Made by a program: the position numbers and the translations under genes | Origin: Leptospirales bacterium | GTDB taxonomy: Bacteria > Spirochaetota > Leptospiria > Turneriellales > JAOUFE01 | NCBI GenBank assembly: GCA_040326155.1 | Contig: JBEQLE010000032.1 | Coordinates: 1-43,642 of the forward strand | Direction: 5' to 3' | Length of the DNA: 43,642 nucleotides | The notes under the pieces: generated by a model | Database searches by the model: none | The model's input: only the letters and a program-made list of their open reading frames with translations | Told to the model about the DNA's origin: nothing | Shown: positions 786 to 22,119 of the stretch, in pieces | Layout: the number at the start of each line of letters is the position of its first letter | How positions within the stretch are numbered: the first letter of the stretch is position 1

Positions 786-838
786 TATATTTAACGGTAA
801 TCGACGGCGATAAAAATTATATGATAGACCGTTTTAAA

Positions 839-2821: not shown

Positions 2822-2857
2822 GTTGCATTCTCCCTTTATAGATTTAATTAAGTAACA

Positions 2858-2874
2858 TGACAGCATGCTGTCAA
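2858..2874 (-). promoter_or_regulatory. Perfect 16-bp palindrome TGACAGCATGCTGTCA overlapping a TTGACA -35; probable MarR operator
   Basis: Palindrome at 2858-2873, about 37 nt upstream of the DJ-1/MarR operon. Minus-strand TTGACA at 2874-2869. Confidence 0.7.
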
Positions 2875-3221
2875 TTGTTTTTGTATTTTCTTGCCTTAAC
2901 TCTAATTGAAGATTTCGAGCGCACATTGGAGTTTTTGCTGCCACCGTTTAAAGTCTGGGCGCTTCGTCATTTCGTAAAGCGACAAGTATTTAATCACTTT
3001 TTCGGAATATGATTTTTCAGCATTTAATTAGCGCAAAATATGCTGCGCCTGTTTTTTAAATATTTCCACCATTTTTTATGGGTGGGTTTGTAATCTTGGT
3101 AACATTTCAACTCTACTATTCAACAAACGAGATCTTCTCTGAAGCGCGATCAAAGGTTATCGGTAAAAGCAAATTTTAAAATTCTTATGGTAAACCTCTC
3201 AAAGCAAATAATAATGTATTT

Positions 3222-3812: not shown

Positions 3813-3828
3813 ATTAACATATGGTAAT
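3813..3828 (+). promoter_or_regulatory. Near-palindrome ATTAACAT-ATGGTAAT; candidate binding site for the adjacent Crp-like regulator
   Basis: One-mismatch inverted repeat immediately after the Crp stop and upstream of the SDR gene. Confidence 0.45.
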
Positions 3829-3884
3829 GACAAATGCTCCTTTATACTATATAAATAACTATAAATTCTGAAGGAGCATTAAGA

Positions 3885-4661: not shown

Positions 4662-4733
4662 TAATGTATAAAAACCCCCTGTCTTAAGAGCATTTAATCT
4701 ACTAACGCTCGACTTCACAGGCGTTAAGGGTCT

Positions 4734-4758
4734 GGCAATGGGCTCTTGCCGTTTTTTT
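4734..4758 (+). terminator. Possible intrinsic terminator
   Basis: GGCAA-7nt-TTGCC followed by GTTTTTTT; the stem is short. Confidence 0.35.
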
Positions 4759-4787
4759 AATAACGAATATTTAATAGAGGAAACATT

Positions 4788-5258
4788 ATGGAAAAATATT
4801 TATTAGCAAAATCTTTGCACATTTTTGGTGTAGTATTATTCCTGGGCAATATTGTTGTAACTGCCTTATGGAAATTACTAGCTGAGAGAACCAGAAATCC
4901 AGCAATCGTTGCTTTCTCTCAGCGATTAGTAACGATTACCGATTTTGCCTTTACTGCTATTGGTGCTGCCCTCATTTTTGTAACAGGCAGGTATTTCTTG
5001 GCTAACAAATTTGGTGAAATTAATACGATTTCATGGCTTTCATGGGGGTATTGGCTATTCATTGTTTCCGGACTATTATGGATCGTTGTTCTTGTCCCTG
5101 TTCAAATCAAGCAGGCCAAATTGGCAAAAGAGTTTGAGAACAAAGATGAAATTCCCAACCGATATTGGACACTCTCAAAAATATGGGTAATAGTAGGTTT
5201 TGTTGCAACAATATTACCTCTTGCAAATTTATACTTCATGGTTTTTAAGCCAACATGA
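4788..5258 (+). CDS. DUF2269-family integral membrane protein
   Basis: AKSLHIFGVVLFLGNIVVTALWK N-terminus, four TM segments, C-terminal YFMVFKP. Confidence 0.85.
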   Translation: MEKYLLAKSLHIFGVVLFLGNIVVTALWKLLAERTRNPAIVAFSQRLVTITDFAFTAIGAALIFVTGRYFLANKFGEINTISWLSWGYWLFIVSGLLWIVVLVPVQIKQAKLAKEFENKDEIPNRYWTLSKIWVIVGFVATILPLANLYFMVFKPT

Positions 5259-5306
5259 AATTGCCGGATTCTTCAATTTATATATTTTGTATTTTATAAT
5301 CTCAAA

Positions 5307-5501
5307 ATAAAATTTGAATTTCATCCAAAAGCACTTGAGGAAAATAAAGATACTGCTCAATATTATGAAGAATGTCAATCCAGTTTAGGACACCGTTTTA
5401 TTTCAGCGGTCGAACAAGCGATTCTTCGTATTACAGAAAAACCTGAACAATGGAAAATTATTGAAAAGGATGTTCGTCGTCCATGCCACATCAATGTTTG
5501 A
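5307..5501 (+). pseudogene. Truncated RelE/ParE-family toxin
   Basis: Not in the ORF track. Reads (ATA)KFEFHPKALEENKDTAQYYEECQSSLGHRFISAVEQAILRITEKPEQWKIIEKDVRR. The start codon is ATA and similarity ends at about 5480. Confidence 0.75.
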
Positions 5502-5514
5502 GGTTCGAAGCGTT

Positions 5515-5912
5515 GTCGAGTAGCCCGCAGGAACTTCCCCCGCAGGCTCTCACCAAGTGGTTTCTTTGAAACCACTTGCCGTACTTGAAACTCTCACTTC
5601 ATACGGCTCTTATAATCCAGCCGCTGGGCTTGTAGCCAATCCGCCAATGATGAAAAAGGTCTGGATTAGCCTGCGAAATGCGAACCAACCAATGTTGGGT
5701 CTTCTTATATTTCCCTCGCATTCGTTTATATTTTCGCATGGCCCAGATAATTAATTTGTGATCGAAGTGTTGGTATATAGTCGCCAGCTCCGACGGATAA
5801 AAAGAACCAAAATAATTTATCCAGCCTCGAATGGCCGTGTTATAATATTTAGATAGTTCTTCAATCGTCCCGGCGGTTTGCGTTGGAATATTCCAACTGC
5901 GAATTGTCTGCC
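5515..5912 (-). mobile_element. 3' remnant of a group II intron (maturase X-domain fragment plus domains V and VI)
   Basis: Minus strand encodes RQTIRSWNIP...NTAIRGWINYFGSFYPSEL...WAMRKYKR...PDLFHHWRIGYKPSGWIIRAV* (stop 5601-5599). It runs into DV GAGCCGTATGAAGTGAGAGTTTCAAGTACGG and DVI GCCTGCGGGGGAAGTTCCTGCGGGCTACTCGAC, ending at 5515. Resembles bacterial class D. Confidence 0.9.
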
Positions 5913-6336
5913 TATCGAAGCCATAGGAATTGCAGATATTCTTTTAACCCTTAAAGATCAATTAAGCTTGAATGAAAAGAAAATGACAGAAATCGCCTTA
6001 GCTCATCCATTGGGTGAAATATTTTATTCTCTGCCCGGTGCCGGCAAAATATTAGCTACAAAATTACTCGGCTTGCTCGGAGATAATAAAAAAAGATTTT
6101 CCAAAGCCAATCAGGCACAGAGCCTTTTCGGCACTGCCCCCATTAACTACCAAAGCGGTGGTTACCATAAAGTTATGATGCGTAAGACTTGTAACAAACG
6201 AGGGAAATCTATTTTGTTTACTTTTGATTTTTCATCGCTACAATATGCCAAGTGGGCTAAAGAAACTATGATAAACAACTAAAGCTTGGGAAAAATCATT
6301 CCGTAGCTGTTCGAGCCTTGTCAAATAAGTGGCTGT
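5913..6336 (+). pseudogene. IS110-family transposase, C-terminal fragment with frameshift
   Basis: SLPGAGKILATKLLG...GTAPINYQSG...CNKR (Transposase_20-like). After a shift near 6263 another frame reads YDKQLKLGKNHSVAVRALSNKWL. The N-terminal DEDD domain is absent. Confidence 0.85.
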
Positions 6337-6339
6337 GGC

Positions 6340-6521
6340 TTAACCGCCCTAGTCGCACTAAACTCTTTGGCAAATAGCCAAAGCCTACGGGAGGTTAGTT
6401 TGCGCTCGTTGAGAATGGCCCTTCGGCCGGAATTTGTAAGACAAATTCTGGGGCCATTCCCTGCTGATTCAGGTAGTCCCAAAACGTCAGATAAAATCTA
6501 AACGTTATACGGAATTTTGCC
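6340..6521 (+). repeat. attC-like structured element, right arm retained
   Basis: Nested hairpins (CTTTGGC/GCCAAAG; GAATGGCCC/GGGCCATTC; GAATTTGT/ACAAATTC) end in CAGATAAA...GTTATAC (6504-6510, R'-like). Confidence 0.55.
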
Positions 6522-6671
6522 TCGACCTACCCTCTGGAGATCACTCTTAATATATGTTAATCTCGGTTAATGATTTATCGTCCTTGGATACTATCAACGA
6601 TATATTCCTTTAATCATATTATGCAATTTTAAAGTTTTTCTTGCATTGCTCTCAATTTGCTTAATTTTTAG

Positions 6672-6708
6672 TTGACAAAAACTGTCAATTGTATTAATAT
6701 TTAATACA
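6672..6708 (+). promoter_or_regulatory. sigma70 promoter with two inverted repeats; probable TA autoregulatory operator
   Basis: TTGACA at 6672-6677, 17-nt spacer, TAATAT at 6695-6700. Inverted repeats TTGACA-5-TGTCAA and TGTATTAA-3-TTAATACA (6690-6708). AGGAG RBS follows. Confidence 0.7.
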
Positions 6709-6723
6709 GGCAAGGAGTTAACC

Positions 6724-6942
6724 ATGAGAGAAATAATATCTATTAGTCTAGACCAATCATTAAAGAAAAAACTTGATAGAGCTTCTAAGAAATTCCACGT
6801 TTCGAAAAGTGAGATTGTACAGAAAGCGTTGGAAAAATATATTTCACATGAGGAATTTCGGGAACTTAGATCCATACTAGTACCATACGCAGAGAAAGCA
6901 GGGTATTATACAGATGAAGACACCTTTAACGAAGTTTCATGA
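6724..6942 (+). CDS. Ribbon-helix-helix (CopG-like) antitoxin
   Basis: ISISLDQSLKKKLDRASKKFHVSKSEIVQKALEKY RHH pattern; C-terminal TDEDTF; ATGA overlap with the PIN gene. Confidence 0.88.
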   Translation: MREIISISLDQSLKKKLDRASKKFHVSKSEIVQKALEKYISHEEFRELRSILVPYAEKAGYYTDEDTFNEVS

Positions 6943-7334
6943 AAATTGTTTTCGATACTAATGTTTTATTATCAGCCTTCGCCACCCATGGCCTATCATA
7001 TCGAGTATTAGATATTTGCCTTGATAAGCATAAAATATTTATCTCACAATGGATTATTGACGAAATATCTGAAAAATTGAAAGATAAATTTAACGTAGCA
7101 AAAAATGATATATTAAAAGTTCACCAATTTATCGAAAGTGATTTTAAAATAGTCATACCCATAGGTAACTTACCTGAAGCTTGTCGGGATGCGGATGACA
7201 ATAATATACTACATCTTGCTGATTTTTGTAATGCAGAAATCATTATTACCGGTGATAAGGATTTGCTCGTTCTACACGAACATAATCAAGTTAAAATAAT
7301 TAACCCAAGGACATTCATTGAAGAGTATAATTGA
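6939..7334 (+). CDS. PIN-domain toxin (VapC-like)
   Basis: MKIVFDTNVLLSA, CRDADDNNIL, IITGDKDLL. Confidence 0.92.
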   Translation: MKIVFDTNVLLSAFATHGLSYRVLDICLDKHKIFISQWIIDEISEKLKDKFNVAKNDILKVHQFIESDFKIVIPIGNLPEACRDADDNNILHLADFCNAEIIITGDKDLLVLHEHNQVKIINPRTFIEEYN

Positions 7335-7575
7335 GTCGGCAAAACTTCAGATAACAAATTTTACCCTGCTCTGCACAACTCTATTGTACCCGACCTGGTA
7401 TTTACATGCGAGGGAAAGCCCTACCCTTTTTTCGCCTCCACTTATTCGAATAGATTGCTCGATAAAAATCGATAAAAACCATTATACGAATTTTCAATTT
7501 CAAAAATATGAGAAATGGGAAAAAAATATCTTGATTTACTGGTAGCAAAAACGAAAGTGATATCTGAGTAAACAA

Positions 7576-8436
7576 ATGAATGAAAAAATGAAAACCATAC
7601 ACAACAGAAAACCGTACAACGGTTTAAGATTAGTTTCTAATGTATTAATATCTTCTTTTTTAGCGTTGTCGACAACAACACTATTTTCAGCGGACTTAGA
7701 TCGGGCCATCCAACTTCGAGAATCGGGTAATACCTTGGAGGCCATTCGTCTGCTAAAAAGCGAAAGGAAACCTACGTTAGAGGAAAACGCTCTGCTTGGT
7801 AAACTTTACCTCGATCGAAACGAATACAAAACCTCGCTTTATTATTATAACCTCTCTTGCCCTGCTTTGAATGTGGCGTGGTGTTTCAATGAATGGGGCG
7901 TCGCCTTTATGATGTATGGGGTCTATAAAAATGCCTGGGGAGCTTTTACAAAAGCGGTCGAAATGGAACCTGAAAATGCTCAATACCACTCGAACCTTGG
8001 ACTTTGCTATTTTTACCGGGGTAAACCGGACGACGCCGGAAAACAATACAAGCTGGCTTTACAATACGACCCGCAAAATGAAACGGCGAATATCAACTAC
8101 GCCGTGCTATTAATACGCAAAAAAATGTATGAAGAGGCTACGACAAGATTACAAAATGTTCTCAGTACAGACGACTCAAATCATTTTGCCCTTTTATATC
8201 TGGGCTATGCTTATTATCGTCAAAAACAGTATGCACTGGCAATCGAACAATACGATAAGGCTTTGTCGTTTAACCCAAACTCGGCTGATCTTTATTTATA
8301 CCGCGCTTATGCATATTACGAAATGAACGCCCTTGGACAAGCCGAGGCAGACTTAAACCGAGCTGAAGCGTTGCAGCCTAAACATCCGAAAGTGGGAATT
8401 TTGCGTTCTATGATACAAAGAAGAAGAGGCTACTGA
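7576..8436 (+). CDS. Exported tetratricopeptide-repeat protein
   Basis: Hydrophobic signal-like N-terminus and several TPR units (e.g. AQYHSNLGLCYFYRGKPDDAGKQYKLALQYDP). Confidence 0.88.
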   Translation: MNEKMKTIHNRKPYNGLRLVSNVLISSFLALSTTTLFSADLDRAIQLRESGNTLEAIRLLKSERKPTLEENALLGKLYLDRNEYKTSLYYYNLSCPALNVAWCFNEWGVAFMMYGVYKNAWGAFTKAVEMEPENAQYHSNLGLCYFYRGKPDDAGKQYKLALQYDPQNETANINYAVLLIRKKMYEEATTRLQNVLSTDDSNHFALLYLGYAYYRQKQYALAIEQYDKALSFNPNSADLYLYRAYAYYEMNALGQAEADLNRAEALQPKHPKVGILRSMIQRRRGY

Positions 8437-8718
8437 TAGGGAAGTGGTTTGAAACCGATATCGTAGCGGCGTACATCGTTTCGGGACCAGACCCCGATCG
8501 TCTTGATTACACTGAAATTTACATTGAAAACGTTGGCCTTTATTATTACAAAAAAGGCGACCTCGAATATAAGTTGACAGAAACAAACGTTCTTGATAAC
8601 TCAAAAGCGCAGGATTCTTGTAAATATTAAATCAAAATATTACCGTTTTATTTACACTTTTTTCCAAATTAAGTAACACTTTCACCGGTTCTATTTGTTT
8701 AACTATTAGAATAACGAA

Positions 8719-9219
8719 ATGAGCAAAAACGATATAGATATTACGACTTACTATACAAGCTATGGACCGATGGTTCTGCGAAGATGCAGGCAACTATTAG
8801 GCGAGGAGGATAGAGCTTTGGACGCTATGCAAGATGTATTCTTATTACTTTTAGAAAAGAAAGATAAAATAAAATATATTTATCCCTCTTCTCTTTTGTA
8901 TCGAATAGCAACAAATGTTTGTTTAAACCTGATTCAAAAAGACCAGAAGGTTGTGAATGTAGAAAATATGGAAGAGCTGATGCAAATTGCAAAACATTCT
9001 GATATGGACGAGAAATTATATATACGTGATTTCTTGAATAAAATTTTTAAGAATGAATATCCGTCTACGAGAGAAATTGCGGTAATGCGTTTTATTGACA
9101 AAATGACATATGAACAAATTTCCACAGAAGTAAAACTCTCCGTATCGGGAATACGCAAACGACTTCGTAAGTTGAAAGAAAATGCTCGGCGAACTGAAGG
9201 AGAAGACTATGAACAATAA
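8719..9219 (+). CDS. ECF-type sigma-70 factor
   Basis: Region 2 (YGPMVLRRCRQLLGEEDRALDAMQDVF...LYRIATNVCLN) and region 4 (MTYEQISTEVKLSVSGIRKRL); 166 aa. Confidence 0.92.
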   Translation: MSKNDIDITTYYTSYGPMVLRRCRQLLGEEDRALDAMQDVFLLLLEKKDKIKYIYPSSLLYRIATNVCLNLIQKDQKVVNVENMEELMQIAKHSDMDEKLYIRDFLNKIFKNEYPSTREIAVMRFIDKMTYEQISTEVKLSVSGIRKRLRKLKENARRTEGEDYEQ

Positions 9220-10039
9220 AGCTCTGAGTACTATTGAACTCGAAAGATATATTGCCGGTGAAGTTTCACCGAATGAAAGAATAAAAATAGAAGAACTTCT
9301 GCTGAAGTCCGACGCACTGAAAAACCAGTTAAAGAAACTAAAGCAATCAAATATAGATATTTTACAAAAATACCCACCCGAGAAAATGGCTGCTCTATTA
9401 AAACAAAGATCGCAAAGGGGTCTCTCGCGTAATTATAACGAACCCGTAAAATTCAAAAAACGAAAATTCAATTCCGGGCTTCTGGTTCCCGCTTTTGGAC
9501 TATTCATAGCGGGACTTTTTCTATACCAGTTTCTCCCCCGGGCGTATTATCAGGATGCGACGCTTGAGACGGATGAAACGTTTGAAGTTTATACGCCGAC
9601 TGATGGTAACAGAATTAAAGGTGTAGAAACAAAACTGCTTGCGTATACTCGCAACGGAAGCCATGTCGATCAACTCACACCACAATCAACGCTGCACGAA
9701 GGCGAGAATTTACAACTGGCCTATTTTACATCTTCGCCAGGGTATGGAGTTATTTTTTCCGTGGACGGCAGAGGTGAAATAACCCTGCACTTTCCATCCA
9801 CCAAAAAAGCGGAACAAAAGTTACAATCCGGAAAAAATATTTATCTTGAATTTTCATACGAGTTGGACGACGCGCCTGAATTTGAAAAGTTCTTTTTCCT
9901 GCAATCTGAAAAAGAAATAGATACAGAAGAGTTATTAAAATTAATTAAGAAAGTTGCCACCCGAGGGGAGAACATTAAAAGTAAAAACTTTAAAGTTCCA
10001 GGGCAATACAAACAGACTACATTTATGATACTAAAATAG
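9209..10039 (+). CDS. Putative membrane-anchored anti-sigma factor (ActD-like) with extracytoplasmic domain
   Basis: ATG 9209 has an AAGGAG RBS and overlaps the sigma stop. N-terminal LERYIAGEV helical domain, one TM, then RIKG...GENLQLAY...SVDGRGEITLHFP...SYELDDAPEFE. Confidence 0.75.
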   Translation: MNNKALSTIELERYIAGEVSPNERIKIEELLLKSDALKNQLKKLKQSNIDILQKYPPEKMAALLKQRSQRGLSRNYNEPVKFKKRKFNSGLLVPAFGLFIAGLFLYQFLPRAYYQDATLETDETFEVYTPTDGNRIKGVETKLLAYTRNGSHVDQLTPQSTLHEGENLQLAYFTSSPGYGVIFSVDGRGEITLHFPSTKKAEQKLQSGKNIYLEFSYELDDAPEFEKFFFLQSEKEIDTEELLKLIKKVATRGENIKSKNFKVPGQYKQTTFMILK

Positions 10040-10062
10040 AACAAAATATCAGGAGGAATAAA

Positions 10063-12183
10063 ATGAAAAATTTAAAATCATTCACTTTATATTTTATGGC
10101 AATAGCATGCACGAGCATATTCTTTTCAGATTTGCCCGCTAATGAAAAACCAAATTTTAAAAGATATGCTTTAGTGGTAGGCTCTAACAGTGGAGGATCG
10201 GACCGCGTCAAATTGAAATATTCAATAAGCGATGCAAAAGCGGTTCGCACGACCCTCAACTCCATCGGTGGAGTGGAAGATGACGCCGCTACTTTATTGG
10301 CTGATCCCTCGGTGGCGCAACTGGCAAGGAGTCTACAAATACTTCATAACATCGGTTCGAAGCATCGTAAAAATGGTACAAAAACAGAAATATTTTTTTA
10401 CTATTCGGGCCATTCCGATGAAGAAGGACTTTTGCTGGGCAAAGAAAAGTTTGAATATAGTAGATTAAAAAGCATCATTGAGAAAATGCCCTTTGATGTT
10501 CGCATTGTCGTACTCGACTCTTGTTCTTCCGGGGCTATGACCAGAAGCAAAGGTGGTAGAAAACGAGCTCCTTTTATTAACAATAATTCAAATTCAATGA
10601 AAGGAAACGCTTACCTTACCTCAAGCTCCTCCGATGAAAACAGCCAGGAATCTGATCGCCTGAAAGGGTCCTTCTTTACCCATTATTTTTTATCGGGACT
10701 TCGCGGGGCTGCGGATTCAAATAAAGATCGCCAGATTACGCTGAGTGAAATATACCAATACGCCTATAGCGCGACTTTGGCCAGAACTGAAAAGACGATC
10801 GGTGGTCCGCAACACGCCAACTACTATATACAAATGACGGGAACCGGCGATGTCGTCATTACAAATTTAAGAAGAAACACCGCCATTTTGCATCTGGCTT
10901 CAAACATTTCCGGGAACGTATTTATACGGAACCAAAAAGGACAGTTAGTAACTGAATTTTACAAACCGCCAAAACAGACTTACGATATAGGACTCGAAAG
11001 CGGGTCGCATACTGTTATGGTTATTCAAAATTCAAACATTCTCAATACGGTAGTTACAATGAAAAAAAATGAAACCGTTCGTTTGAATGAAAACGATTTA
11101 ACTCCCGTTGCCGGCGATGAAAGTGTTTCGAAAAAGGGCGATGAAGAAGAAACCGCGCCGGAACTGATCTACACACCATTTAGTTTTCAACTCTTTCCGA
11201 TGGTCGGTTCCTTGAAAAATCATACTACGTTTTCCCTGTTTTTGGTAGGCTCTTACAATTACCGTATAACGGGCGTTTCGGTAGGTGTCGGCGTAGACAT
11301 AGTAAAAGAGAGTATGCAGGGAGTACAAGTGTCTGTTGGCGCCAATATCGTCGGAACACATATGCAAGGCGTACAAGCGACCGTCGGTGGAAACCTCGTC
11401 TTTGGCCCCGCCGAGGGGGTGCAAACAGCCGTTGGTTTTAACAACGTCACCGGGACCTTTTCCGGAGTGCAAGCTGCCGTAGGTTTTAATTGTGTAGCGG
11501 GTCAGTTTTCAGGAGTACAGGTTTCCGCTGGGTTTAATTGTGCAATGGGGCAGTTTTCAGGTGTGCAAGTGTCGAACGTGAATATAAGTTCCGGAACTTC
11601 TGAAGGAGTGCAAGTAGGTTTAGTCAACATAGGTCGACAAGTCAAAGGGGTACAGGTGGGCTTAGTAAACGTATCAGAAGAAAATTCGGGAGTTGCCATC
11701 GGCCTGGTTAATGTTTTTAAAAATGGCTACCATGGTGTAGACACCTGGGCTGATGAAGTTGGGTATTTCCACTTAGGTTATCGACATGGAAATGATAAAT
11801 TTTATAATCTGTATTCAGCCGGAGTACACTATTCCATGAAAACAGCAAAAGCGACTATAGGTTTCGGATTCCAACTTCCCAATGCCGGACCTGTTGGTTT
11901 TTCCATTGATTTTCTCTCTTCCCTGGAAATAGATAAAAGCTTCTCGCTTTGGAACAATTCCAGGTATGACAGGGTAAATGGTTTGGAAAATTTTGAGAGC
12001 AACTACACAAATTCTATACGATTTTTAACCCATATAAAATTTGGAGACCGATTTGGGCTAATTGCTGGTGTTTCCCTGAACCATACAGCAAATAATATGC
12101 CTGCTTCTTACATACCGGGACTTGGAGATACCATAAATGGACACTCCTTCTGGCCCGGGTTTTTCATTGGAATGCGGTATTAA
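10063..12183 (+). CDS. Exported caspase-family (peptidase C14) protein with GVQ beta-helix repeats (LA_2272-like) and a beta-rich C-terminus
   Basis: Signal peptide; RYALVVGSN, FYYSGH (His 10411), VLDSCSSG (Cys 10522), ESDRLKGSFFT; about 15-aa GVQ repeats; ends GFFIGMRY. Confidence 0.88.
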   Translation: MKNLKSFTLYFMAIACTSIFFSDLPANEKPNFKRYALVVGSNSGGSDRVKLKYSISDAKAVRTTLNSIGGVEDDAATLLADPSVAQLARSLQILHNIGSKHRKNGTKTEIFFYYSGHSDEEGLLLGKEKFEYSRLKSIIEKMPFDVRIVVLDSCSSGAMTRSKGGRKRAPFINNNSNSMKGNAYLTSSSSDENSQESDRLKGSFFTHYFLSGLRGAADSNKDRQITLSEIYQYAYSATLARTEKTIGGPQHANYYIQMTGTGDVVITNLRRNTAILHLASNISGNVFIRNQKGQLVTEFYKPPKQTYDIGLESGSHTVMVIQNSNILNTVVTMKKNETVRLNENDLTPVAGDESVSKKGDEEETAPELIYTPFSFQLFPMVGSLKNHTTFSLFLVGSYNYRITGVSVGVGVDIVKESMQGVQVSVGANIVGTHMQGVQATVGGNLVFGPAEGVQTAVGFNNVTGTFSGVQAAVGFNCVAGQFSGVQVSAGFNCAMGQFSGVQVSNVNISSGTSEGVQVGLVNIGRQVKGVQVGLVNVSEENSGVAIGLVNVFKNGYHGVDTWADEVGYFHLGYRHGNDKFYNLYSAGVHYSMKTAKATIGFGFQLPNAGPVGFSIDFLSSLEIDKSFSLWNNSRYDRVNGLENFESNYTNSIRFLTHIKFGDRFGLIAGVSLNHTANNMPASYIPGLGDTINGHSFWPGFFIGMRY
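11270..11715 (+). repeat. Intragenic tandem repeat of about 45 nt / 15 aa (GVQxxxGxN)
   Basis: Successive units such as MQGVQVSVGANIV, MQGVQATVGGNLV, FSGVQAAVGFNCV, FSGVQVSAGFNCA, GVQVGLVN. Confidence 0.8.
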
Positions 12184-12215
12184 AACCGTGTTCCAATAAA
12201 GTTGAACAAGCCAGA

Positions 12216-13106
12216 TTACTTTTCGTCGATCATTTGAATTAAAGTATCGACGAAAATATCTGGCTTTGTGTAATGCGGAGTATGGCCACCGCCCTCAATT
12301 TGATGCAATATATTCATTCCCTTTTTCGGTTTAATCTTCTCTGCCATTTTTTTTGCATACTCCAATGGAAAAAAACTATCGTTGTTTCCCCATATTAAAA
12401 ATGTGTCGACCTTTAAATGCGACAACAGGTCATCAAGATAGTACTTTCCGCTCACAGCGTCATCAAACAGATGAATGTGCGCCTCAGTTTGTAATTTGAT
12501 CATCTTATTCAATATATAATCTGGTATACTCGGGGCTTCGTCCCCAAACATCATTTCAATTTTCTTTGCGTAGTCTTGCGAATTTGTTGGTAACATATAG
12601 CGCTTTGGATATTCCCATTCCAGACCCGCAGAGTTCACCAAGACAAGATTTTCAACTTTTTCTGAATTTTCAAGGGCGTACAAAACACTGACCCAACCTC
12701 CGAGAGAATTTCCAACCAGAGTGAATTGTTGAGTGGGTATCACTTCTATGACAGCTTCCATTCCGGTAAGCAAAGTTTGCATCTGTAAATTATGATCAAG
12801 CGGACCGAGGCTGTCTCCATGACCGGGTAAATCAATTACAACAATATGATAGTTCGGTAAGAGTCGTTCCACCGCATCAAGCCAGTTTGAACTCTCACTT
12901 AAAAAACCATGTATAAAAACAATGGATTTGCCCACTCCCCCTTCAAAATAAGTAACGCGACCAGCTTCTGAGTCTACGCTATGTTTAACGAAACCTTTAT
13001 ATTCAAGATTTTGCCTTTGCAACCAGAGTCCTATGCGAACCGGATACAGGGCTAATATTAATGTTACAATAATAACAAATGCCAATAAGAAATAACGCTT
13101 TTTCAT
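12216..13106 (-). CDS. Alpha/beta hydrolase with N-terminal membrane anchor
   Basis: FIHGF, DLPGHG, GNSLGG nucleophile, WGNND, GGHTPH. Start taken at MKKRYFLL. Confidence 0.9.
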   Translation of the reverse strand: MKKRYFLLAFVIIVTLILALYPVRIGLWLQRQNLEYKGFVKHSVDSEAGRVTYFEGGVGKSIVFIHGFLSESSNWLDAVERLLPNYHIVVIDLPGHGDSLGPLDHNLQMQTLLTGMEAVIEVIPTQQFTLVGNSLGGWVSVLYALENSEKVENLVLVNSAGLEWEYPKRYMLPTNSQDYAKKIEMMFGDEAPSIPDYILNKMIKLQTEAHIHLFDDAVSGKYYLDDLLSHLKVDTFLIWGNNDSFFPLEYAKKMAEKIKPKKGMNILHQIEGGGHTPHYTKPDIFVDTLIQMIDEK

Positions 13107-14179: not shown

Positions 14180-15178
14180 ATGAAAATGACAGAAAGAACA
14201 ATTCAGCTACGGAGTTCAAATACAATATTCAAAACTTCAAAATATATATTACTAATTTTTCTCGGTATCGCATTAATTAATTGCCGAAATAATCCTGAAA
14301 ATGTATGGGTCCAACAACCGGGGTTATACCCTGAAGGACTCGAACGACATCCTGGTAAAAATCAATTTTTAGTTACTTCGTTGACCAAAGGTTCTGTTGG
14401 CCTTGTGAATGACCAGGGCGAATACAGTCCATTCATTGAAGATGAAAGGTTGGTCAGCGCAATTGGAATTCGAGTGGATAAAAAACAATCGAGAGTTATT
14501 GTAGCGAATTCAGACCCGGGGGTGAGTATAAGGACCTCTGCTCAAACAAAATTGAAACTGGCAGCGGTGGGTATTTACGATCTAAAAGATGGATCTCCTA
14601 TTGCGTATTACGAACTAGATAAGCTTTATAAGGGGAACCATTTTGCAAATGACATCGCCTTAGACAAAGATGGAAATATTTATATTACGGATAGTTTTTC
14701 ACCGGTAATTTACAAAATAGACGGCGCAGGTAAAGAGTCCATTTTTTTTACGAACGAAAGGTTTACCGGCAAAGGTTTTAATTTAAACGGTATAGTCGCT
14801 GTTAATAATTACCTGATTGTAGCAAAATACAATGAGGGAGTTCTCTTTAAAATACCTCTTGAGAATCCTGAAAATTTCAAACAGATTAAAATCGATCGAA
14901 CCTTTCCAGGGGCTGACGGTCTTGCCATTGCAAAAGACGGCTCTCTTGCCCTTATCGCAAACGGTTCCATATCAACTGTATTTAAACTCGAAAGTGATGA
15001 CGATTTTGTATCTGCAAAAATCGTTGCTACTGATCATTACAAATGGCGTTACAACACTACGGGAATATTTCGATGCAACGATTTCTACGTACTAAATGCG
15101 GAACTAAATGCTCTTTTTGGCGGTAAAGACCCGGTCCAAAAATTTGAAATACGCAAGGTAAAATACACATCCAAATGA
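14180..15178 (+). CDS. SMP-30/gluconolactonase-like beta-propeller, probable lipoprotein
   Basis: IALINC lipobox-like motif; LYPEG, FANDIALDKDGNIYITDS, LNGI, GADGL. Confidence 0.8.
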   Translation: MKMTERTIQLRSSNTIFKTSKYILLIFLGIALINCRNNPENVWVQQPGLYPEGLERHPGKNQFLVTSLTKGSVGLVNDQGEYSPFIEDERLVSAIGIRVDKKQSRVIVANSDPGVSIRTSAQTKLKLAAVGIYDLKDGSPIAYYELDKLYKGNHFANDIALDKDGNIYITDSFSPVIYKIDGAGKESIFFTNERFTGKGFNLNGIVAVNNYLIVAKYNEGVLFKIPLENPENFKQIKIDRTFPGADGLAIAKDGSLALIANGSISTVFKLESDDDFVSAKIVATDHYKWRYNTTGIFRCNDFYVLNAELNALFGGKDPVQKFEIRKVKYTSK

Positions 15179-15486
15179 GCATACTACTTGAATTCAGCAT
15201 GTTTCCTACCGATGTAGGAGAAAGTAAATCGGAATACGTAGCCCGCTCCATCTCGATTATAAAAAAATCCGGTCTACCCTATAAAATGGGTCCAATGGGC
15301 ACCGTAATTGAAGGAGAGTGGGACGAAGTTATGGCCGTCGTAAAACAGTGCCAGGAAGCAATGTCCAGCGACTGCAACCGCGTCTACTCCAACATAAAAA
15401 TCGATTCCCGAAAAGGCAAATCTGGGCGGCTCCAGGCAAAAATTGAATCCGTAAAAACAAAGCTCGGAGAAGATATAAACTCGTAA
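15175..15486 (+). CDS. MTH1187/YkoF-like thiamine-binding (DUF77) protein
   Basis: EFSMFP...S.SEYVA...SGLPYKMGPMGTVIEGEWDEV...RVYSNIKID. Confidence 0.9.
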   Translation: MSILLEFSMFPTDVGESKSEYVARSISIIKKSGLPYKMGPMGTVIEGEWDEVMAVVKQCQEAMSSDCNRVYSNIKIDSRKGKSGRLQAKIESVKTKLGEDINS

Positions 15487-15676
15487 ATTTGTACACTTGT
15501 AAACAAAGAAACAACAATTTTTGCGTTACAAAAATACCACGAAGCAAGCCGATCAAAACCACTCTTTTTTTTCTGATGTTTTGGGGTGACCCGACCTGCC
15601 AGACGAGCGCGACCCGAAGTCGCACCTGAGCAGATCAAAATTTGCTATGTGATGAAATTGGGTGGACAGTCACACT

Positions 15677-16120
15677 TCAATTTGTAGGTCCAATAGAAAT
15701 AGGAACATCACATTCTTCAAAGTGAGCTTTTATTTCCAATGATCCGCCATGACTTTTCACGAAATTTTCTGGCTGAGGCATTACTTTGGTTTCATGTGAT
15801 GCAGTATGAGTCTCTCCGAACATTTCTTGTAGTTCTTTGAGTCGAATATCTGTTTTATGAGCGACTAAAATCGCTTCCAATCGCGCAATAATTAGATTTT
15901 CATCTCTAAACACTTCATCCGGTCCGTTACCATAATCATTTGATTTGCCCTTATGTATTCCAAATCCTAAGTTTGGTCTATATTCAACGGTAATAACTTC
16001 GTTACCGGCAAAGATGTCTAACCATGAACTCCCTGACTCTATTTCGGCCTTATCTATTTCAAATGTAAAATGGAGGAACTTTGCCTGCACTTTTTTTACA
16101 AAATCATCAAACATATTCAT
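15677..16120 (-). CDS. Hypothetical protein; putative antitoxin with a degenerate XRE/HigA-like C-terminus
   Basis: C-terminal LKELQEMFGET...FVKSHGGSLEIKAHF resembles the tail of HigA-type HTH antitoxins. ATGA overlap with the upstream gene. Confidence 0.5.
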   Translation of the reverse strand: MNMFDDFVKKVQAKFLHFTFEIDKAEIESGSSWLDIFAGNEVITVEYRPNLGFGIHKGKSNDYGNGPDEVFRDENLIIARLEAILVAHKTDIRLKELQEMFGETHTASHETKVMPQPENFVKSHGGSLEIKAHFEECDVPISIGPTN

Positions 16121-16473
16121 AAATCCTCTACTTTTTTACCATCTAAGCCCGGTTTGTCAAGCAATACTATACGATCTTTTACGGTAATAATTTTAATCGA
16201 ACCGTTATTTCCAATATATGTATTGTGTGATCTGTTGCGGTATCTGATAATATTTTCATTGCCTGTACTTCGAATGCTATCTGTTTGCGGTGCGTACATC
16301 CTTCCATCAGTCATCCAGAGTGAAGGCGCAAAGGGAATCTTAGTAAATTCATTCTCTACTTCATTTAATATATGAGTTAAAAGTTGAAATACTTTTTCAG
16401 TAGTATCTACTGGTTTTGCATTAAATAACCTGGAAAAGAATATTTGTAACCTTTTCTGCTTGCTCTCATTCAC
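16117..16473 (-). CDS. Hypothetical protein; putative toxin
   Basis: 118 aa, GTG start; motifs LNEVE, DGRMYAPQ.D, RSHNTYIGNNGSI, LDKPG. Translationally coupled to the next gene. Confidence 0.55.
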   Translation of the reverse strand: MNESKQKRLQIFFSRLFNAKPVDTTEKVFQLLTHILNEVENEFTKIPFAPSLWMTDGRMYAPQTDSIRSTGNENIIRYRNRSHNTYIGNNGSIKIITVKDRIVLLDKPGLDGKKVEDL

Positions 16474-16657
16474 TGAATATTAATCCACTTCAATTATTTT
16501 CTGCAAATGAAAATCGTGTTTAAATTCTGGTAAACCATAAATTCTATCAACCTTCATCTGACACTACTGAATTGAATGAAATTGAACACGTCAATCAATA
16601 TAAATATGACATCTTCGACTTTCCAGTATTTACAGAGTCAATAAATGATAATCCAAC

Positions 16658-16687
16658 CGTACACACAACATGGACGTTGTGTGTACG
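16658..16687. repeat. Perfect 12-bp hairpin CGTACACACAAC-ATGGAC-GTTGTGTGTACG
   Basis: Seen directly, about 33 nt downstream of the helicase stop; no U-tract. Confidence 0.7.
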
Positions 16688-16720
16688 ACTGCTAATCGGT
16701 AATTAACAGGGGAATGTAAT

Positions 16721-18940
16721 TTAAACGTTCAATCCATCACTAATTTTGTTCGCATCAGAATCTAGAAAATTGATGAAATCTTTCTTACAAAGAGATGCAA
16801 ACTTTTTGAGATCATCTAAAACGTAAAAAGATTCAGCAGCATGATGCACGGAAAATATAGTTGGTATAAAATCGGAAAAACGTGAATAATGAAATTTATC
16901 GAGATGACGGCCTAAAAACTTTATCCAATCTTCATTAGTCATGGAATGTAGACTACTTATAAATTCATGAATTGATTCTAAGACTTTTGGTATTGGTATT
17001 TTACGTAGTTTAAACTCTAAACGATAGAAATTATGTGATACTTTTAAACCAGGAAATGAATCACAAAGACAAAATGCAATAACAGTATTGATCATGGTGC
17101 CGGCATATGTTTCGATCCAGAGTTCGGTTCCCATTTTAGTTACACCGATTTTACCTTCTTCAACGGGATTGTGACCAAGTCTTTTTGTGTGTAACTGCAA
17201 TGTTTGTAAAGCGTTGGGACTCACTTGATCTGCTACATTATATTTGCTTGCTAATATATCGTGAAAACGTCTGGCGACTTCATATTCAACACGGAAAAGA
17301 CCACCGCCGCTCCAGGCAGGTGGTAATGCGTCGGCGGCAGGTTTAACCAATATACATTTCAGGTCTTCAATAATCTCTTGTACTGCCCACTTTCGACCGG
17401 CAAGTTGAAAAACAGATTCTTCCGAGTTAAGGCCGAATGCGAACCAACTTTCCAGAAAGCCGATTTCTTCATTATTATACAAAACGGTATAATTCTCATT
17501 TACATCGAATACGGCATAAAGTTCCATATAGTTTTTGTGTGAAAACTTTTTCTCAATGATTGGGCCAATTAGTAATACTCGGCCATCGTTGAATAAGAAA
17601 TCATGACTCACCCAGTATTCAATTAACTTATCAAACTCCTCTCGCTTTATTTCACTAAATGAATATGCGGATTTTATTTTGTTGAAAAAAGTATCAGGGT
17701 TGATGCCATAATTACCAAGTATTTCCAATAATAATTGTTGAAACAAAATATCATATCGGCGTCGGGATGGACGAAGAGGTTCAAAATACCCTTCAGCGCC
17801 TTTTGACGACATGGCCATATTTAAAACAAAATCTTCGAAGGTTTTGGTCAATAGAACGATATGAGCATTTCCATCTCGTCTACCTGCACGCCCTATTCGT
17901 TGTAAGTACGAATTCACCGAGGGGAGGTGATCTTTTTGAATGACTCGATTGAGGTCGCCTATGTCAATGCCAAGTTCAAGGGTCGATGTGGCGCTGATCA
18001 CGCTGTGTGCATCGTCGGTTCGCATTTTTTCTTCGGTCTCTTCTCTAAGAAGTTTAGAAACAGAACCATGATGAACCATAGCATGAATACCACTCACTTC
18101 TAAAATGCAAGCTGTCATCTCTACATCTTTCTTGGAGTTACCAAAAATAATTGTCTTACCCGAAACTGTAAGGTCTTTCAGCGTATGCTGAAGAATGGCA
18201 CCATAGTTTTCACCTTCTTCGTTAATTAATATATGTTCTACCGAAACACTCCTTTGATTTCCTGCTGCGTTAATTATTTCACAATCGGGGCCGGAACCTT
18301 GAAGCCAAGTCGCTACCGCTTCGGGGTCACCTACCGTAGCGGAAAGACCGATTCTTTGGATTGGTTGAGATACAAAAGATTGTAGTCTCTCCATGGAGGA
18401 TGATAGCTGTGCGCCACGCGAATCAGCGGCAAAATAGTGAGCTTCATCTACGACTAACGAGACAACATTTTTGAAATATTCTTTATTATTAATCGATTCT
18501 GAAGCAAGCATTACATCCAGACTTTCAGGGGTGGTTAAAAGTATTGATGCAGGATTCTTTTTTTGTTTATTCTTACTAAAAGCGGAAACATCTCCATGCC
18601 ATTTGAATATGGAAATATCGCCCAGGTTTTCCAGCCAACCTTCAATACGCAAATCGAGGTCGTTTAAAAGAGCTTTAAGTGGCGCTATAAAGATGGCATG
18701 AATACTCTCAGTTTTTGAAGCTGATTCAAAGATATTGGACAATACTGGAAAAAGAGCGGCTTCCGTTTTACCGCCTGCTGTAGGTGAAATGACTAAGCAA
18801 CAGGAACCATTCACGACAACTGGTATAACTTCTCTTTGTACCGGGCGAAAAAAATTTTTACTATCTGCCCACTTCTTTTGTATCTCTCGTTGCACAGTGG
18901 GATGCAACATTTCAAGAATTTCAATATCCGATTTACCCAT
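16721..18940 (-). CDS. Lhr-like DEAH-box helicase (BrxHI/SngC-like)
   Basis: SPTAGGKTEA, TTPESL, VDEAH, GLSATVG, HHGSVS, TSTLELGIDIG, QRIGRAGR, then an Lhr-type winged helix and FQLAGRKW. ATG 18940 overlaps the ATPase stop by 8 nt. Confidence 0.9.
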   Translation of the reverse strand: MGKSDIEILEMLHPTVQREIQKKWADSKNFFRPVQREVIPVVVNGSCCLVISPTAGGKTEAALFPVLSNIFESASKTESIHAIFIAPLKALLNDLDLRIEGWLENLGDISIFKWHGDVSAFSKNKQKKNPASILLTTPESLDVMLASESINNKEYFKNVVSLVVDEAHYFAADSRGAQLSSSMERLQSFVSQPIQRIGLSATVGDPEAVATWLQGSGPDCEIINAAGNQRSVSVEHILINEEGENYGAILQHTLKDLTVSGKTIIFGNSKKDVEMTACILEVSGIHAMVHHGSVSKLLREETEEKMRTDDAHSVISATSTLELGIDIGDLNRVIQKDHLPSVNSYLQRIGRAGRRDGNAHIVLLTKTFEDFVLNMAMSSKGAEGYFEPLRPSRRRYDILFQQLLLEILGNYGINPDTFFNKIKSAYSFSEIKREEFDKLIEYWVSHDFLFNDGRVLLIGPIIEKKFSHKNYMELYAVFDVNENYTVLYNNEEIGFLESWFAFGLNSEESVFQLAGRKWAVQEIIEDLKCILVKPAADALPPAWSGGGLFRVEYEVARRFHDILASKYNVADQVSPNALQTLQLHTKRLGHNPVEEGKIGVTKMGTELWIETYAGTMINTVIAFCLCDSFPGLKVSHNFYRLEFKLRKIPIPKVLESIHEFISSLHSMTNEDWIKFLGRHLDKFHYSRFSDFIPTIFSVHHAAESFYVLDDLKKFASLCKKDFINFLDSDANKISDGLNV

Positions 18941-20177
18941 CCGCTTGGCCAATTTTTGGGAGCAACTCTTTGATTGTTTTTTCTGGAAATTCTTTTAAAA
19001 GGTCGAAAGCTTCGACGAGTTCGCGTATAAATTTTCGTGGACCAGATTCCTTAATACCGAAAGCACCCGTGGATAAGTGGCTAACTAGGGCGGCGAGGCC
19101 TTCATCTGAGATCTTATTCATTATTTGCCAATCTTCAGCTACTCCATGAATAACACGTATCTTTGTTGCAAGTAACGAAAGATCAGATTCGTTCAGTGGT
19201 GATAATTCCAGAATAGGTTGTTTTTTACTGCCTGAACTATCCAGGTTTTTAATCTTACGAATTCGTTCTATTAGGGCTGGGTATTGTCTGATGCCCTTTG
19301 TTTCTGAAAAAAATTGCGGAGTTGCGGTAACTAGAAATAGAGAATTTTGAAACTGACCCGCAGCCGTATCGTCAAGAATGTGCCGTAAAATTTCATAGGC
19401 TTTTAATCTTTGCGTTGGTTGTTGTAATCGCATTACTGTTTCTACTTCATCAAGAACAATTAGAGTACCGGCATAACCAGCCTCCTTTGCCAACAATAAT
19501 ATACCTTTTAGAAAATTATAAGCATTATCACCAGCAATTTTCCCTTTCAAACCTAATTGTTTGGAAAAATCTTTCGCTGGTATTTTATCACTTGCTCTAA
19601 TCCAGTCTAAGGCATATTTTGATAATTCGCTGTTCTTTTGTACTTTGCCACCAGCAAATGCAGCCATAGCTCTAGACAATGACGGATCCATGTTTCGAAC
19701 AGAAACCAATTCATTCTCAATGTGTGACATGAAATCTTTGGCTTGTTCAAGATTAATTGTTGCGGAATCGGAGAGACCTTCAATACTCTGGTGCATACGA
19801 AGTTGTTGCAAAGACCACTCTTCTAATATATTGATAATACCGGATCCATCACGGCTATTTGGAGTTTTAAAGTTTCTACAAAATGCGCTATAGACCTGAG
19901 TAAAGTTACCTAATTGAACTGTTGGATCTATAACTATTTGCGAAATGCAAAAATTCATAGATAATGCTTGTTCCACTAAATATGTTGAAAGCATCGTTTT
20001 TCCCGAACCGTAGTCGCCTTGAATAAAGCGAACTGATGAAATATTATCTTTTTTAACTTTCGTTAATTCACTCATTAGTTCGGAGATTTGCGCTTCATGG
20101 CCAACAATGATTTCACTGAGTCCTTCTTTAGGGACTGTACCGGTGCGCAACGCTTTTAACAACTCTATTCCATTCAT
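18933..20177 (-). CDS. BrxD-like (DUF2791) P-loop ATPase
   Basis: ALRTGTVPKEGL N-terminus, Walker A GDYGSGKT, Walker B LIVLDEVE, TATPQFF...GIRQYPALIERI, PRKFIRELV. Confidence 0.85.
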   Translation of the reverse strand: MNGIELLKALRTGTVPKEGLSEIIVGHEAQISELMSELTKVKKDNISSVRFIQGDYGSGKTMLSTYLVEQALSMNFCISQIVIDPTVQLGNFTQVYSAFCRNFKTPNSRDGSGIINILEEWSLQQLRMHQSIEGLSDSATINLEQAKDFMSHIENELVSVRNMDPSLSRAMAAFAGGKVQKNSELSKYALDWIRASDKIPAKDFSKQLGLKGKIAGDNAYNFLKGILLLAKEAGYAGTLIVLDEVETVMRLQQPTQRLKAYEILRHILDDTAAGQFQNSLFLVTATPQFFSETKGIRQYPALIERIRKIKNLDSSGSKKQPILELSPLNESDLSLLATKIRVIHGVAEDWQIMNKISDEGLAALVSHLSTGAFGIKESGPRKFIRELVEAFDLLKEFPEKTIKELLPKIGQADG

Positions 20178-20187
20178 TTATATTGCC

Positions 20188-21741
20188 TTATTTTAATTGG
20201 TAAAGTGGATGATCACTGTACTTCTGGACCACAATTATATCTTGCCCATTTTCTTGCATTTTTTTAATCATATCATTCATTTGAGTTTCTGGAAAATACC
20301 ATGGCAGATCAAACCTGGCGACGAGACGTTCAATGACTGGTCCTGAGGCAGTTTTATTTTCTATGATGAATGATAGAATAATCAATTCATCAGATGAAAG
20401 GTATGGATACTTAACTTTAAGTCCGTCAATACTTTCAGATCGTTTTTCTTTTGCCTTTTCTCGGTCGACCTGTGTAGATAAACTAATGATTGAAGCCGTA
20501 TCATTTTCTATTTCATCACTTTCTTCAGGGGGAGAGTAAGAAGAAAAATTATCAACTATTCTTGAAATTTTGTCTTGTTTTGAACCTGAAACTTTAACAT
20601 TTAGTTTCGAACATAAGTCATATAATTCAGAACTCGATAATTGGTTTAAAAGCGTATTCTCAGAATAAATACTATCCCATATACTCTGTATTCGATTCAT
20701 TTTGGAGCCGCTTTTATTTATTTTCCTGAGGCCTGATGCGATGGAGTAAAGTTGTTCATTGGAGAGTGGTGTAAATATTTGATGAAATGCTTCTTTGCCA
20801 AGAACCTTTTCTTCAGGTTTGGGTGGCGCAAGTTTTTTTTCTAATTCTTCCTTTCGTCGCAAGTCCTCATCGCTGTCGATGAAATCAATTATATTTTCAA
20901 TGATATCTGATTTGCTGCCACTTATTTGTGAGCCAATCTTTCTCGCAGCGTCTCTTAGAATATCATTACTAAGATTGTTCAGTGCATTTCTGGGTGAAAC
21001 ATAATTTTCTATGATACGTATAGATTTTTCAGCTGCGCTACCAGAAATGCTTAATTCATTTTTCTTTAAAATTTCTGTTAAATCATGACTTGGTATTTGT
21101 TCTAAAAGTCTCTGGTATTGTTCATTTGTTAATGAAAAACCCCAAGTCTTTCTGATTATTGGAATCATTTCCGATGCAATTGTAAAATAACCTTCCAAGG
21201 GGTGTAATATACCGCTAGCTATGAGATGATTACGTTCTCTTTCATAGTAGTTTTCACTAAACCAGTAAGTTGTTAGGGATTCGTGATGTTCTAGTATAAT
21301 ATGTTCCTTAAAGGATATATCCAATTCGTCCCTTAGTGCCATAAGTAAGCGATATTCAGATAGATCAATCGAAGAGTCCGATTCCCAAGCCACCTGTAGC
21401 ATTTTCAAGTAAAGAGAGTAATCTTTTTTTGAACGTAAACCTTCACCTTTAGTTGCACTTTTGATAAAGATTTCAGTGTTTTTCTTTATGGCATCTTTGA
21501 AGCCTTTAACTGATATTTTATGGTCTGGCTCATCAATAATTTTACTTAAAATTAGATAAGATGGTGGATTTCGTAAAGATAGAGACTTTTGGATGTAATA
21601 GAATTTTAAAAGATGATTACTCAATTCATCCACCAAGACTTCTCTGGGGAGTTTGATATGATCAATATCTTGAATTTTTCCGGTCGCAAGTTGTTCCAAG
21701 CTTTCAATTTGATAAGAATTTAAAATGTCATTTAGTTTCAA
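20188..21741 (-). CDS. Uncharacterised protein with a TerB-like helical segment, four SAP-like repeats and a possible C-terminal winged helix
   Basis: Likely TTG start at 21741 after GGAG (the ORF extends to 21756). VAWESDSSIDLSEYRLLMALRDELDIS, and four L..(I/L)....(I/V/K)SGS....(I)..I units. Ends 10 nt before the ATPase. Confidence 0.7.
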   Translation of the reverse strand: MKLNDILNSYQIESLEQLATGKIQDIDHIKLPREVLVDELSNHLLKFYYIQKSLSLRNPPSYLILSKIIDEPDHKISVKGFKDAIKKNTEIFIKSATKGEGLRSKKDYSLYLKMLQVAWESDSSIDLSEYRLLMALRDELDISFKEHIILEHHESLTTYWFSENYYERERNHLIASGILHPLEGYFTIASEMIPIIRKTWGFSLTNEQYQRLLEQIPSHDLTEILKKNELSISGSAAEKSIRIIENYVSPRNALNNLSNDILRDAARKIGSQISGSKSDIIENIIDFIDSDEDLRRKEELEKKLAPPKPEEKVLGKEAFHQIFTPLSNEQLYSIASGLRKINKSGSKMNRIQSIWDSIYSENTLLNQLSSSELYDLCSKLNVKVSGSKQDKISRIVDNFSSYSPPEESDEIENDTASIISLSTQVDREKAKEKRSESIDGLKVKYPYLSSDELIILSFIIENKTASGPVIERLVARFDLPWYFPETQMNDMIKKMQENGQDIIVVQKYSDHPLYQLK

Positions 21742-22119
21742 TATGTACTCCAACAAAAAAGAGATTAAAGGTGTGATATTTAATTATTCTTCTAAGACTT
21801 TAATATTCACCACCATTAATTAATATTTACGTAGGAGTTTAAGTCTTTTTTTATTATAGATGAAATTAAATGGCCCAAGCCGTTTGCATTATTATTTTTC
21901 GTATAGCCTTACAACCTGCCATTTGCTTCTGATCACCGTCGCAACCAGGATCTAATCCGTGATCAGTATTTGCAACTAAAACATGGAGTCTATTATCGGC
22001 TATTAATGATTTGCACTTTCAATTCATTAAAGGAACATCTCGGGGCATTTGAAGATAACGTACTTTAAACGAATATCCAACGAAGCAACCTCCCCGGATT
22101 TTCACGCGAAATCCTGGTA

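Follow-up and report, generated by a model that had tools for sequence, protein, structure and literature searches.

A tandem SAP-array protein encoded with a BrxD/SngB-type ATPase and an Lhr-like helicase in a candidate Shango-like cassette of a Leptospirales bacterium

Shango combines a TerB protein with an ATPase and a helicase of the DEAD/DEAH type; its anti-phage activity is modest and its mechanism is not known (10.1101/2022.11.11.516204; 10.1101/2022.05.11.491447). For type 2 BREX, a recent survey describes BrxD as an ORC/Cdc6-type ATPase that has no DNA-binding domains of its own, is tightly linked to the helicase BrxHI and has been proposed as its loader or activator (PMC12839542). 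The roles of TerB in Shango and of BrxD in type 2 BREX are called unclear in these papers (10.1101/2022.05.11.491447; PMC12839542). Here we analyse a 43,642-nucleotide stretch of DNA (hereafter the window) from a Leptospirales bacterium (GenBank assembly GCA_040326155.1, contig JBEQLE010000032.1, positions 1 to 43,642 of the forward strand), which encodes a protein with four SAP units (the SAP-array protein) together with an ATPase and a helicase related to those of Shango and BREX. We consider it probable, at roughly 60%, that this three-gene cassette is an undescribed Shango-like anti-phage system, in which the SAP-array protein would bind foreign DNA and recruit the ATPase and the helicase.

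The three genes lie on the minus strand and form an operon in the order SAP-array protein, ATPase, helicase. The SAP-array gene (20188-21756) encodes 522 aa from a TTG start in the list of open reading frames (ORFs), and the protein-database form is 517 aa long, starting five codons downstream at 21741. An AAA+ ATPase of the BrxD/SngB type (414 aa, 18933-20177) starts 10 nt past the SAP-array stop codon. It scores 290 bits against Pfam BrxC_BrxD and, in PADLOC, 234 bits against BrxD and 176 bits against SngB (E 2.3e-52), and its Walker A and B motifs (GSGKT and LDEVE) are readable in the translation. The third gene (16721-18952), which overlaps the ATPase gene by 20 nt, encodes a 743-aa Lhr-like superfamily 2 helicase of the BrxHI/SngC type with the Pfam domains DEAD, Helicase_C and WH_Lhr, PADLOC scores of 512.7 bits for BrxHI and 419.3 bits for SngC (E 9.3e-126), and readable motifs I, II (DEAH), III and VI. 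Judged by gene context, the SAP-array protein is one subunit of this ATPase-helicase cassette and not a stand-alone sensor, a context that was missed by the original prediction, made from the window sequence, in which the protein had been proposed to be a multivalent DNA/RNA sensor.

The cassette resembles Shango in being a compact, stand-alone set of three genes in the same order, with an ATPase and a helicase that are full-length homologues of SngB and SngC. It differs from Shango in its first protein, which has no detectable relation to SngA (no PADLOC match to SngA was obtained for it or for three of its relatives), and in its two enzymes, whose PADLOC scores are higher for BrxD and BrxHI than for SngB and SngC. 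The best PADLOC models of both enzymes are thus those of the BrxD-BrxHI dyad of type 2 BREX (Pgl), in which the two genes are likewise tightly linked. Unlike type 2 BREX, however, the cassette is flanked by housekeeping genes, its ATPase reaches 235.5 bits against the NCBIfam BREX_BrxD model where the equivalog cut-off is 350, and PglZ was not found in this genome (94.7% complete; PglX and BrxC were not searched for separately). PglZ was found in one of the four other genomes that host the cassette.

A canonical Shango locus is present elsewhere in the same genome (contig C95; positions 6894-12490 of locus L008), where PADLOC identifies SngA (729 aa, 137 bits), SngB (423 aa, 473 bits) and SngC (706 aa, 665 bits). 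By their sequences, two systems of the Shango build coexist in this one genome. The ATPase of the cassette is 27% identical to this SngB and the helicase is 30% identical to this SngC. PADLOC 2.0 has no model for the SAP-array protein. Among the papers listed by our literature searches, from which subscription journals are mostly absent, no title or abstract joined "SAP domain" with Shango, SngA/SngB, BrxD, BrxHI or DUF2791. The 2026 BREX survey does not use "SAP" anywhere in its main text, where no SAP-array partner of BrxD is mentioned (PMC12839542). What appears to be new is a Shango-like triad with a different first subunit; the ATPase-helicase build is already known.

The original prediction described four SAP-like motifs in two pairs, and its five peptide strings all match the translation of the single minus-strand ORF 20188-21756 exactly, within positions 20550-21410. 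A Pfam scan of the whole protein identified SAP (PF02037; E 6.9e-8, 32.4 bits where 23.9 is required) and SAP_new25 (27.5 bits where 26.3 is required). When the units were scanned singly, unit 2 (21.6 bits, E 1.7e-4) and unit 4 (17.9 bits, E 2.4e-3) gave SAP matches below the cut-off, and units 1 and 3 gave no SAP match. We also compared a profile of the 85-member family against all PDB sequences, which returned 17 sequences at E <= 1. They align to units 1, 2 and 4 of the profile, and unit 3 drew no match. Sixteen of the 17 are what we take to be SAP-domain proteins or regions, the exception being chain b-iTHR-110 (E 0.033), and at E <= 0.01 the matches are SAP domains exclusively. Unit 1 (aa 224-249, 21010-21087, minus strand, as are all four) matches MKL1 (2kvu), E1B-AP5 (1zrj), 1kcf and SF3B2 (2do5). 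Unit 2 (aa 265-290, 20887-20964) matches 2rno, SIZ1 (2rnn) and the C-terminal SAP region of Ku70 (1jjr), the last of which is the best solved match of the family profile (E 2.8e-8). Unit 4 (aa 376-401, 20554-20631) matches the SAP domains of Tho1 (4uzw/1h1j), DEK (2jx3) and Hcc-1 (2do1). Unit 3 (aa 334-359, 20680-20757) is the most divergent, with a loop longer by one residue, and was identified by hhalign and in the structural model. Across the family, 74 of 85 members have a Pfam SAP match at E <= 0.01 and the place of the best SAP stretch varies between members, all four positions being represented.

The four units are homologous to one another. In hhalign comparisons of the units as cut from a 70-sequence family alignment, all six pairs were linked at 97.6-99.2% probability (E 3.7e-12 to 3.5e-19), unit 3 being linked to units 1, 2 and 4 at 97.6-98.6%, and none of the 12 control comparisons, which used helical segments from elsewhere in the protein, exceeded 2.3%. 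Furthermore, the first pair aligns with the second collinearly over 89 columns (99.8%, E 6.3e-29), so the array is a tandem duplication of a di-SAP module, and the two pairs described in the original prediction have a common origin. In the AlphaFold2 (AF2) model each unit is a helix-loop-helix (residues 218-227/236-245, 259-269/277-289, 328-336/347-355 and 370-379/388-400), with per-residue confidence (pLDDT) mostly between 80 and 91; this is the outcome of the check for a helix-extended-helix fold that had been suggested for the motifs. Pfam, the PDB-sequence profile search, hhalign and the model all agree on four SAP units. The mean pLDDT of the whole-protein model is 79 and a Foldseek search of PDB with it returned no match at E <= 0.001. 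In the SAP region, Foldseek gave confident local matches to DEK-nucleosome entries alone (E 0.4-0.5; probability 0.94-0.97 across some 107-116 columns); a paired arrangement is present in these entries, and their similarity to the array is local. A six-frame search of this genome for the SAP family gave no match, but it gave none in any control genome either and is hence uninformative.

The pairs are separated by a linker (aa 291-333, 20758-20886, minus strand) that had been called charged and Pro-rich. It is charged, but it contains just three prolines. The model places helices at 292-304 and 316-323, a conserved short helix precedes unit 3, and residues D293, E310, L314 and F319 are conserved. 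The units resemble the eukaryotic SAP, or helix-extended-helix, domains of Ku70, PIAS/SIZ1, Tho1, DEK and MKL1 both in sequence profile and in their modelled helix-loop-helix. In contrast to those proteins, four units are present here in one bacterial protein as a duplicated pair, of which unit 3 is divergent. With four SAP units in two pairs, multivalent nucleic-acid binding by the protein may fairly be inferred from its sequence profile and model. The array also documents four SAP units in tandem in bacteria.

As modelled, the SAP-array protein starts with a winged-helix-like N-terminal domain, continues with the two di-SAP modules in tandem and ends in a winged helix. To place it among its relatives, we searched sequence databases by two routes: a word-indexed search identified 15 close relatives, and an exhaustive search of cluster representatives identified 171 relatives at E <= 0.001. 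Many of these are about 400 aa long and have the N-terminal domain and all four SAP units without the C-terminal winged helix. The relatives are found in metagenome-assembled genomes (MAGs) of Leptospirales, Rhodothermales, Binatia and Acidobacteriota (four phyla) and in metagenomes. Their distribution is patchy: the protein was not found in the 40 related genomes searched, and a search of 401 genomes from the phylum of one relative recovered the family twice, once in the genome of that relative and once in a further genome. In nine loci of the close subfamily, which include two pairs that look like near duplicates and so amount to about six independent cases, a homologue of the ATPase lies directly downstream of the SAP-array gene in 8/8 loci with downstream DNA, and the helicase then follows in all six that reach far enough.

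Some relatives carry further domains on the same chain. Among 28 longer or distant relatives, seven have a C-terminal fusion to a strong, near-complete PF10923 ATPase domain; in an eighth, of 573 aa (P0022), the PF10923 match is limited to the first 36 profile positions. A FokI cleavage domain is present in 6/85 aligned family members, and a distant relative of 620 aa (positions 1093-2955 of locus L043), from the one further genome recovered among the 401, combines the N-terminal domain and SAP-like units with Mrr_cat (22.8 bits, cut-off 21). As a lead only, an Atlas structure search placed the fold of the N-terminal domain in clusters annotated FokI_cleav+SAP and "putative restriction endonuclease". 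What the FokI and Mrr_cat relatives share with the SAP-array protein is the N-terminal domain, including the A..D...E..LL..LR.EL motif, and a single SAP pair. They differ in being single-chain proteins with a nuclease domain, and in lacking the second SAP pair and the winged helix.

These fusions bear on a broader idea, which we put forward tentatively. The N-terminal domain, with its TerB-like hairpin, and the di-SAP module could together be a portable DNA-sensing module, plugged into either a loader-helicase pair or FokI/Mrr nucleases, and might constitute an undescribed defence family. The loader-helicase pair would be of the BrxD/BrxHI type, encoded by separate genes or fused through the ATPase. 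SAP domains are otherwise best known from eukaryotic chromatin proteins, and in such a module the array would tell foreign from self DNA by shape or ends and not by sequence or methylation. Recurrence of the module on restriction-type nucleases would be useful for finding further systems and, if the idea is true, it could illuminate the role of the unexplained first subunit in Shango-like systems.

The cassette of the window lies in an insertion. In two genomes of the same family, homologues of leuS and of the DUF5715 gene lie about 50-64 bp from the homologue of ORF 15175-15486, a Pfam Thiamine_BP protein, with nothing between them. In the window, the DUF5715 gene and this thiamine-binding-protein gene are separated by about 6.6 kb (15487-22119), and we therefore interpret this segment as an insertion (a genomic island). 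The cassette is best read as a self-contained, horizontally acquired unit in which SngA, the TerB protein of Shango, is replaced by an unrelated, putatively DNA-binding protein. At one related locus, from a Leptospirales MAG (L002), the neighbouring genes (1-7771 and 16101-17210) include cas genes (Cas3-like, GSU0054 and GSU0053) and PIN, WCX-domain and Uma2 nuclease-like genes, and by its gene content this neighbourhood looks like a defence island. At another locus the cassette lies beside a baeRF gene.

We propose a model in which a DNA-bound protein recruits the enzymes because BrxD is without DNA-binding domains and the cassette adds a predicted multi-module binder, which in some lineages is fused to the ATPase. 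Many weak contacts from the SAP units and the winged helices would together attach the protein to invading DNA, or to some structure characteristic of such DNA, for which ends, forks, AT-rich or distorted duplex and possibly RNA:DNA hybrids are candidates. Apart from forks, these candidates are substrates that SAP domains prefer, and Lhr helicases act on RNA:DNA hybrids. Once bound to DNA, the SAP-array protein would recruit or activate the ATPase, which would load the helicase on the bound DNA and thereby block replication of that DNA. From its domains, the first subunit looks plainly like a DNA binder with several sites, and in some relatives it shares one chain with the ATPase. The resulting scheme, from a DNA-bound adaptor through an ORC/Cdc6-like loader to a loaded Lhr-like helicase, is a testable one.

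Structure prediction of the ATPase together with the SAP-array protein lends this model weak support. The median ipSAE was 0.59 (runs of 0.59, 0.19 and 0.62) and the best control gave 0.00; the runs had at least 47% of contacts in common and the pLDDT of the partner was at least 76. Of 157 solved complexes, 116 pass the mark used for such predictions, as do 2 of 215 mismatched pairs, and the range at or below an ipSAE of 0.60 holds 18 of the 157 solved complexes and both of the passing mismatches.

Several observations weigh against a Shango-like defence system. The complex prediction is weak, with one of its three runs at 0.19. Pfam did not detect a nuclease or other killing domain in the cassette, and PADLOC gave no meaningful match for the SAP-array protein or for three scanned relatives, the only match being a weak one to Csm2 on one SAP unit (E 9.9e-5). 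The conserved neighbourhoods described above cover the close subfamily and not the forms of about 400 aa, which are the bulk of the family. Long flanks are available at four loci, and at two of them, the window and a further locus (L005), the neighbours are housekeeping and not defence genes; in the window these are leuS, DUF5715, Thiamine_BP and others. The argument for a defence role draws on gene context and on the homology of the ATPase and the helicase, two genes out of three. Finally, the best NCBIfam matches of the helicase are to ligase-associated DEXH and other ATP-dependent helicase models, all far under their cut-offs, and Lhr-type helicases act in DNA repair too.

The last of these points leads to the alternative that survives best, although we regard it as unlikely, namely that the cassette is a DNA repair or genome-maintenance module in which the SAP array tethers ends or damage, as the SAP domain of Ku70 does, and the ATPase loads an Lhr-like repair helicase. 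The Ku70 SAP region is the best solved match of the family profile, the helicase has an Lhr winged helix and matches best, in NCBIfam, the DEXH helicase of the ligase-associated DNA damage response (260 bits, far under the cut-off of 850), and housekeeping neighbours at some loci would also suit such a module. However, a very patchy distribution and a recent insertion are unusual for a repair pathway, and both enzymes have their closest characterised homologues among defence components. Relatives that fuse the N-terminal domain and SAP module to restriction-type nucleases, and the locus that adjoins cas genes, likewise favour the Shango-like defence system over repair.

The C-terminal part of the SAP-array protein raises a second alternative. 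An acidic linker of low confidence (aa ~408-441, 20434-20535, minus strand; pLDDT below 50 at model residues 403-436) is followed by a C-terminal winged-helix domain (aa ~438-522, 20191-20445, minus strand). In the VIA structure comparison, this domain (model residues 433-517) matched Fur (2w57) with Z 8.1 and a root-mean-square deviation (rmsd) of 2.6 over 74 aligned residues, and further matches included MecI (1okr, Z 7.7), an ORC subunit (7jgr_B, Z 7.5), BlaI, MarR and LmrR. Among the matches listed, the majority are winged-helix proteins, with Z between 6 and 8.2, which is close to the VIA caution line of Z = 8. Since MecI, BlaI, MarR and Fur are repressors and the SAP-array gene is the first of the operon, the protein might serve chiefly to regulate transcription of the ATPase and helicase genes by means of this winged helix, and not be a working subunit. 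We find this quite improbable: most family members are without the C-terminal winged helix and yet retain the N-terminal domain and four SAP units, the ATPase fusion in a quarter of the longer forms suits a subunit and not a repressor, and 522 aa with five or six modules is far above the typical size of a repressor.

The N-terminal domain (aa 6-218, 213 aa; 21103-21741, minus strand) was modelled from 85 sequences with a pLDDT of 92.8 and a predicted template-modelling score (pTM) of 0.87. A Foldseek search of PDB with this model returned no match at E <= 0.001, and a Pfam scan of the N-terminal 218 aa returned nothing at E up to 10. In a VIA-wide structure search all matches were weak (best Z 7.0). 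Residues 1-54 matched the Rho N-terminal domain (1a62; Z 6.0, rmsd 2.5, 47 aligned) and residues ~46-202 matched the winged helices of ORC, Cdc6 and TubR, with a helical insert (Z 6-6.8). Because these matches are weak, we do not name the fold beyond "winged-helix-like with an insert". The first ~50 residues align with SAP unit 2 in hhalign (72%, E 3.3e-5), so a fifth, degenerate helix-extended-helix unit is possible at this end of the modelled protein.

The helices upstream of the SAP units had been likened to those of TerB. The helix pair concerned, AWESD..ID.SE..LL..LR.EL.IS (aa 123-148, 21313-21390, minus strand), is conserved in the family. The sequence searches nevertheless do not support a TerB domain in this protein: besides the empty Pfam scan, a search for TerB in six frames across this genome (E <= 0.001) returned three other places, including SngA, and not the SAP-array ORF, and an hhalign comparison of the N-terminal domain profile with 12 natural TerB domains, although its best alignment falls exactly on the flagged motif, gave a probability of 1.1% (E 0.047). 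No TerB sequence is among the PDB matches of the family profile at E <= 1, and no entry titled TerB or tellurite resistance is among the 50 rows listed from the VIA-wide search, families outside those rows not being excluded. A weak Pfam TerB match is present in two of the 85 family members; in one relative (P0123) it is below the cut-off (E 1.8e-4) and maps to the region of the flagged motif. Judged from sequence, the resemblance of the stretch to TerB is at the level of a motif.

A third alternative is that the SAP-array protein is a very divergent SngA whose N-terminal domain is a degenerate TerB, sensing the signal of Shango (metal, membrane or stress), with the SAP units added on; the position of its gene in the place of SngA, the two weak Pfam TerB matches and a best TerB alignment that keeps register with the second A-D-G...E helix pair of that domain speak for it, but we consider it quite improbable in view of the 1.1% probability, the missing PADLOC and PDB-sequence matches, a six-frame TerB search that recovers the SngA of this genome and not this ORF, and an hhalign probability of 0.3% between the family profile and that same SngA.

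Just past the flagged helix pair lies a motif, E-H-x-x-x-E-H-H (aa 146-154, window ~21295-21321), that is among the most conserved parts of the family, with H147 invariant in 53 sequences. This motif may bind a metal or form an interface.

Other features of the island and the window are as follows. A terminator-like hairpin with a 17-bp stem is located just past the stop codon of the helicase gene (16654-16691, minus strand); it is a consensus match from a scan that found 7 sites against 4.3 expected. A scan for sigma-70-type promoters performed no better than on shuffles (26 sites against 23.9 expected). Downstream of the hairpin, two small ORFs of 118 aa and 147 aa overlap by 4 nt (15677-16473, minus strand). 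They have no Pfam family at E <= 0.1 and no tblastn match in any fetched cassette locus; by these sequence searches they are outside the conserved cassette, and they may be a toxin-antitoxin-like pair or cargo. No tRNA gene was found near the island. An imperfect 20-nt direct repeat (15528-15547 and 22069-22088) lies near both ends of the island and may have been left behind by the insertion or have arisen by chance; at 80% identity it is too weak for us to call it a target-site duplication. Elsewhere in the window, a run of plus-strand genes (7576-12183) encodes a TPR protein, an extracytoplasmic function (ECF)-type sigma factor, a DUF4384 protein and a 706-aa caspase (Peptidase_C14) protein, and may be a signalling or conflict module.

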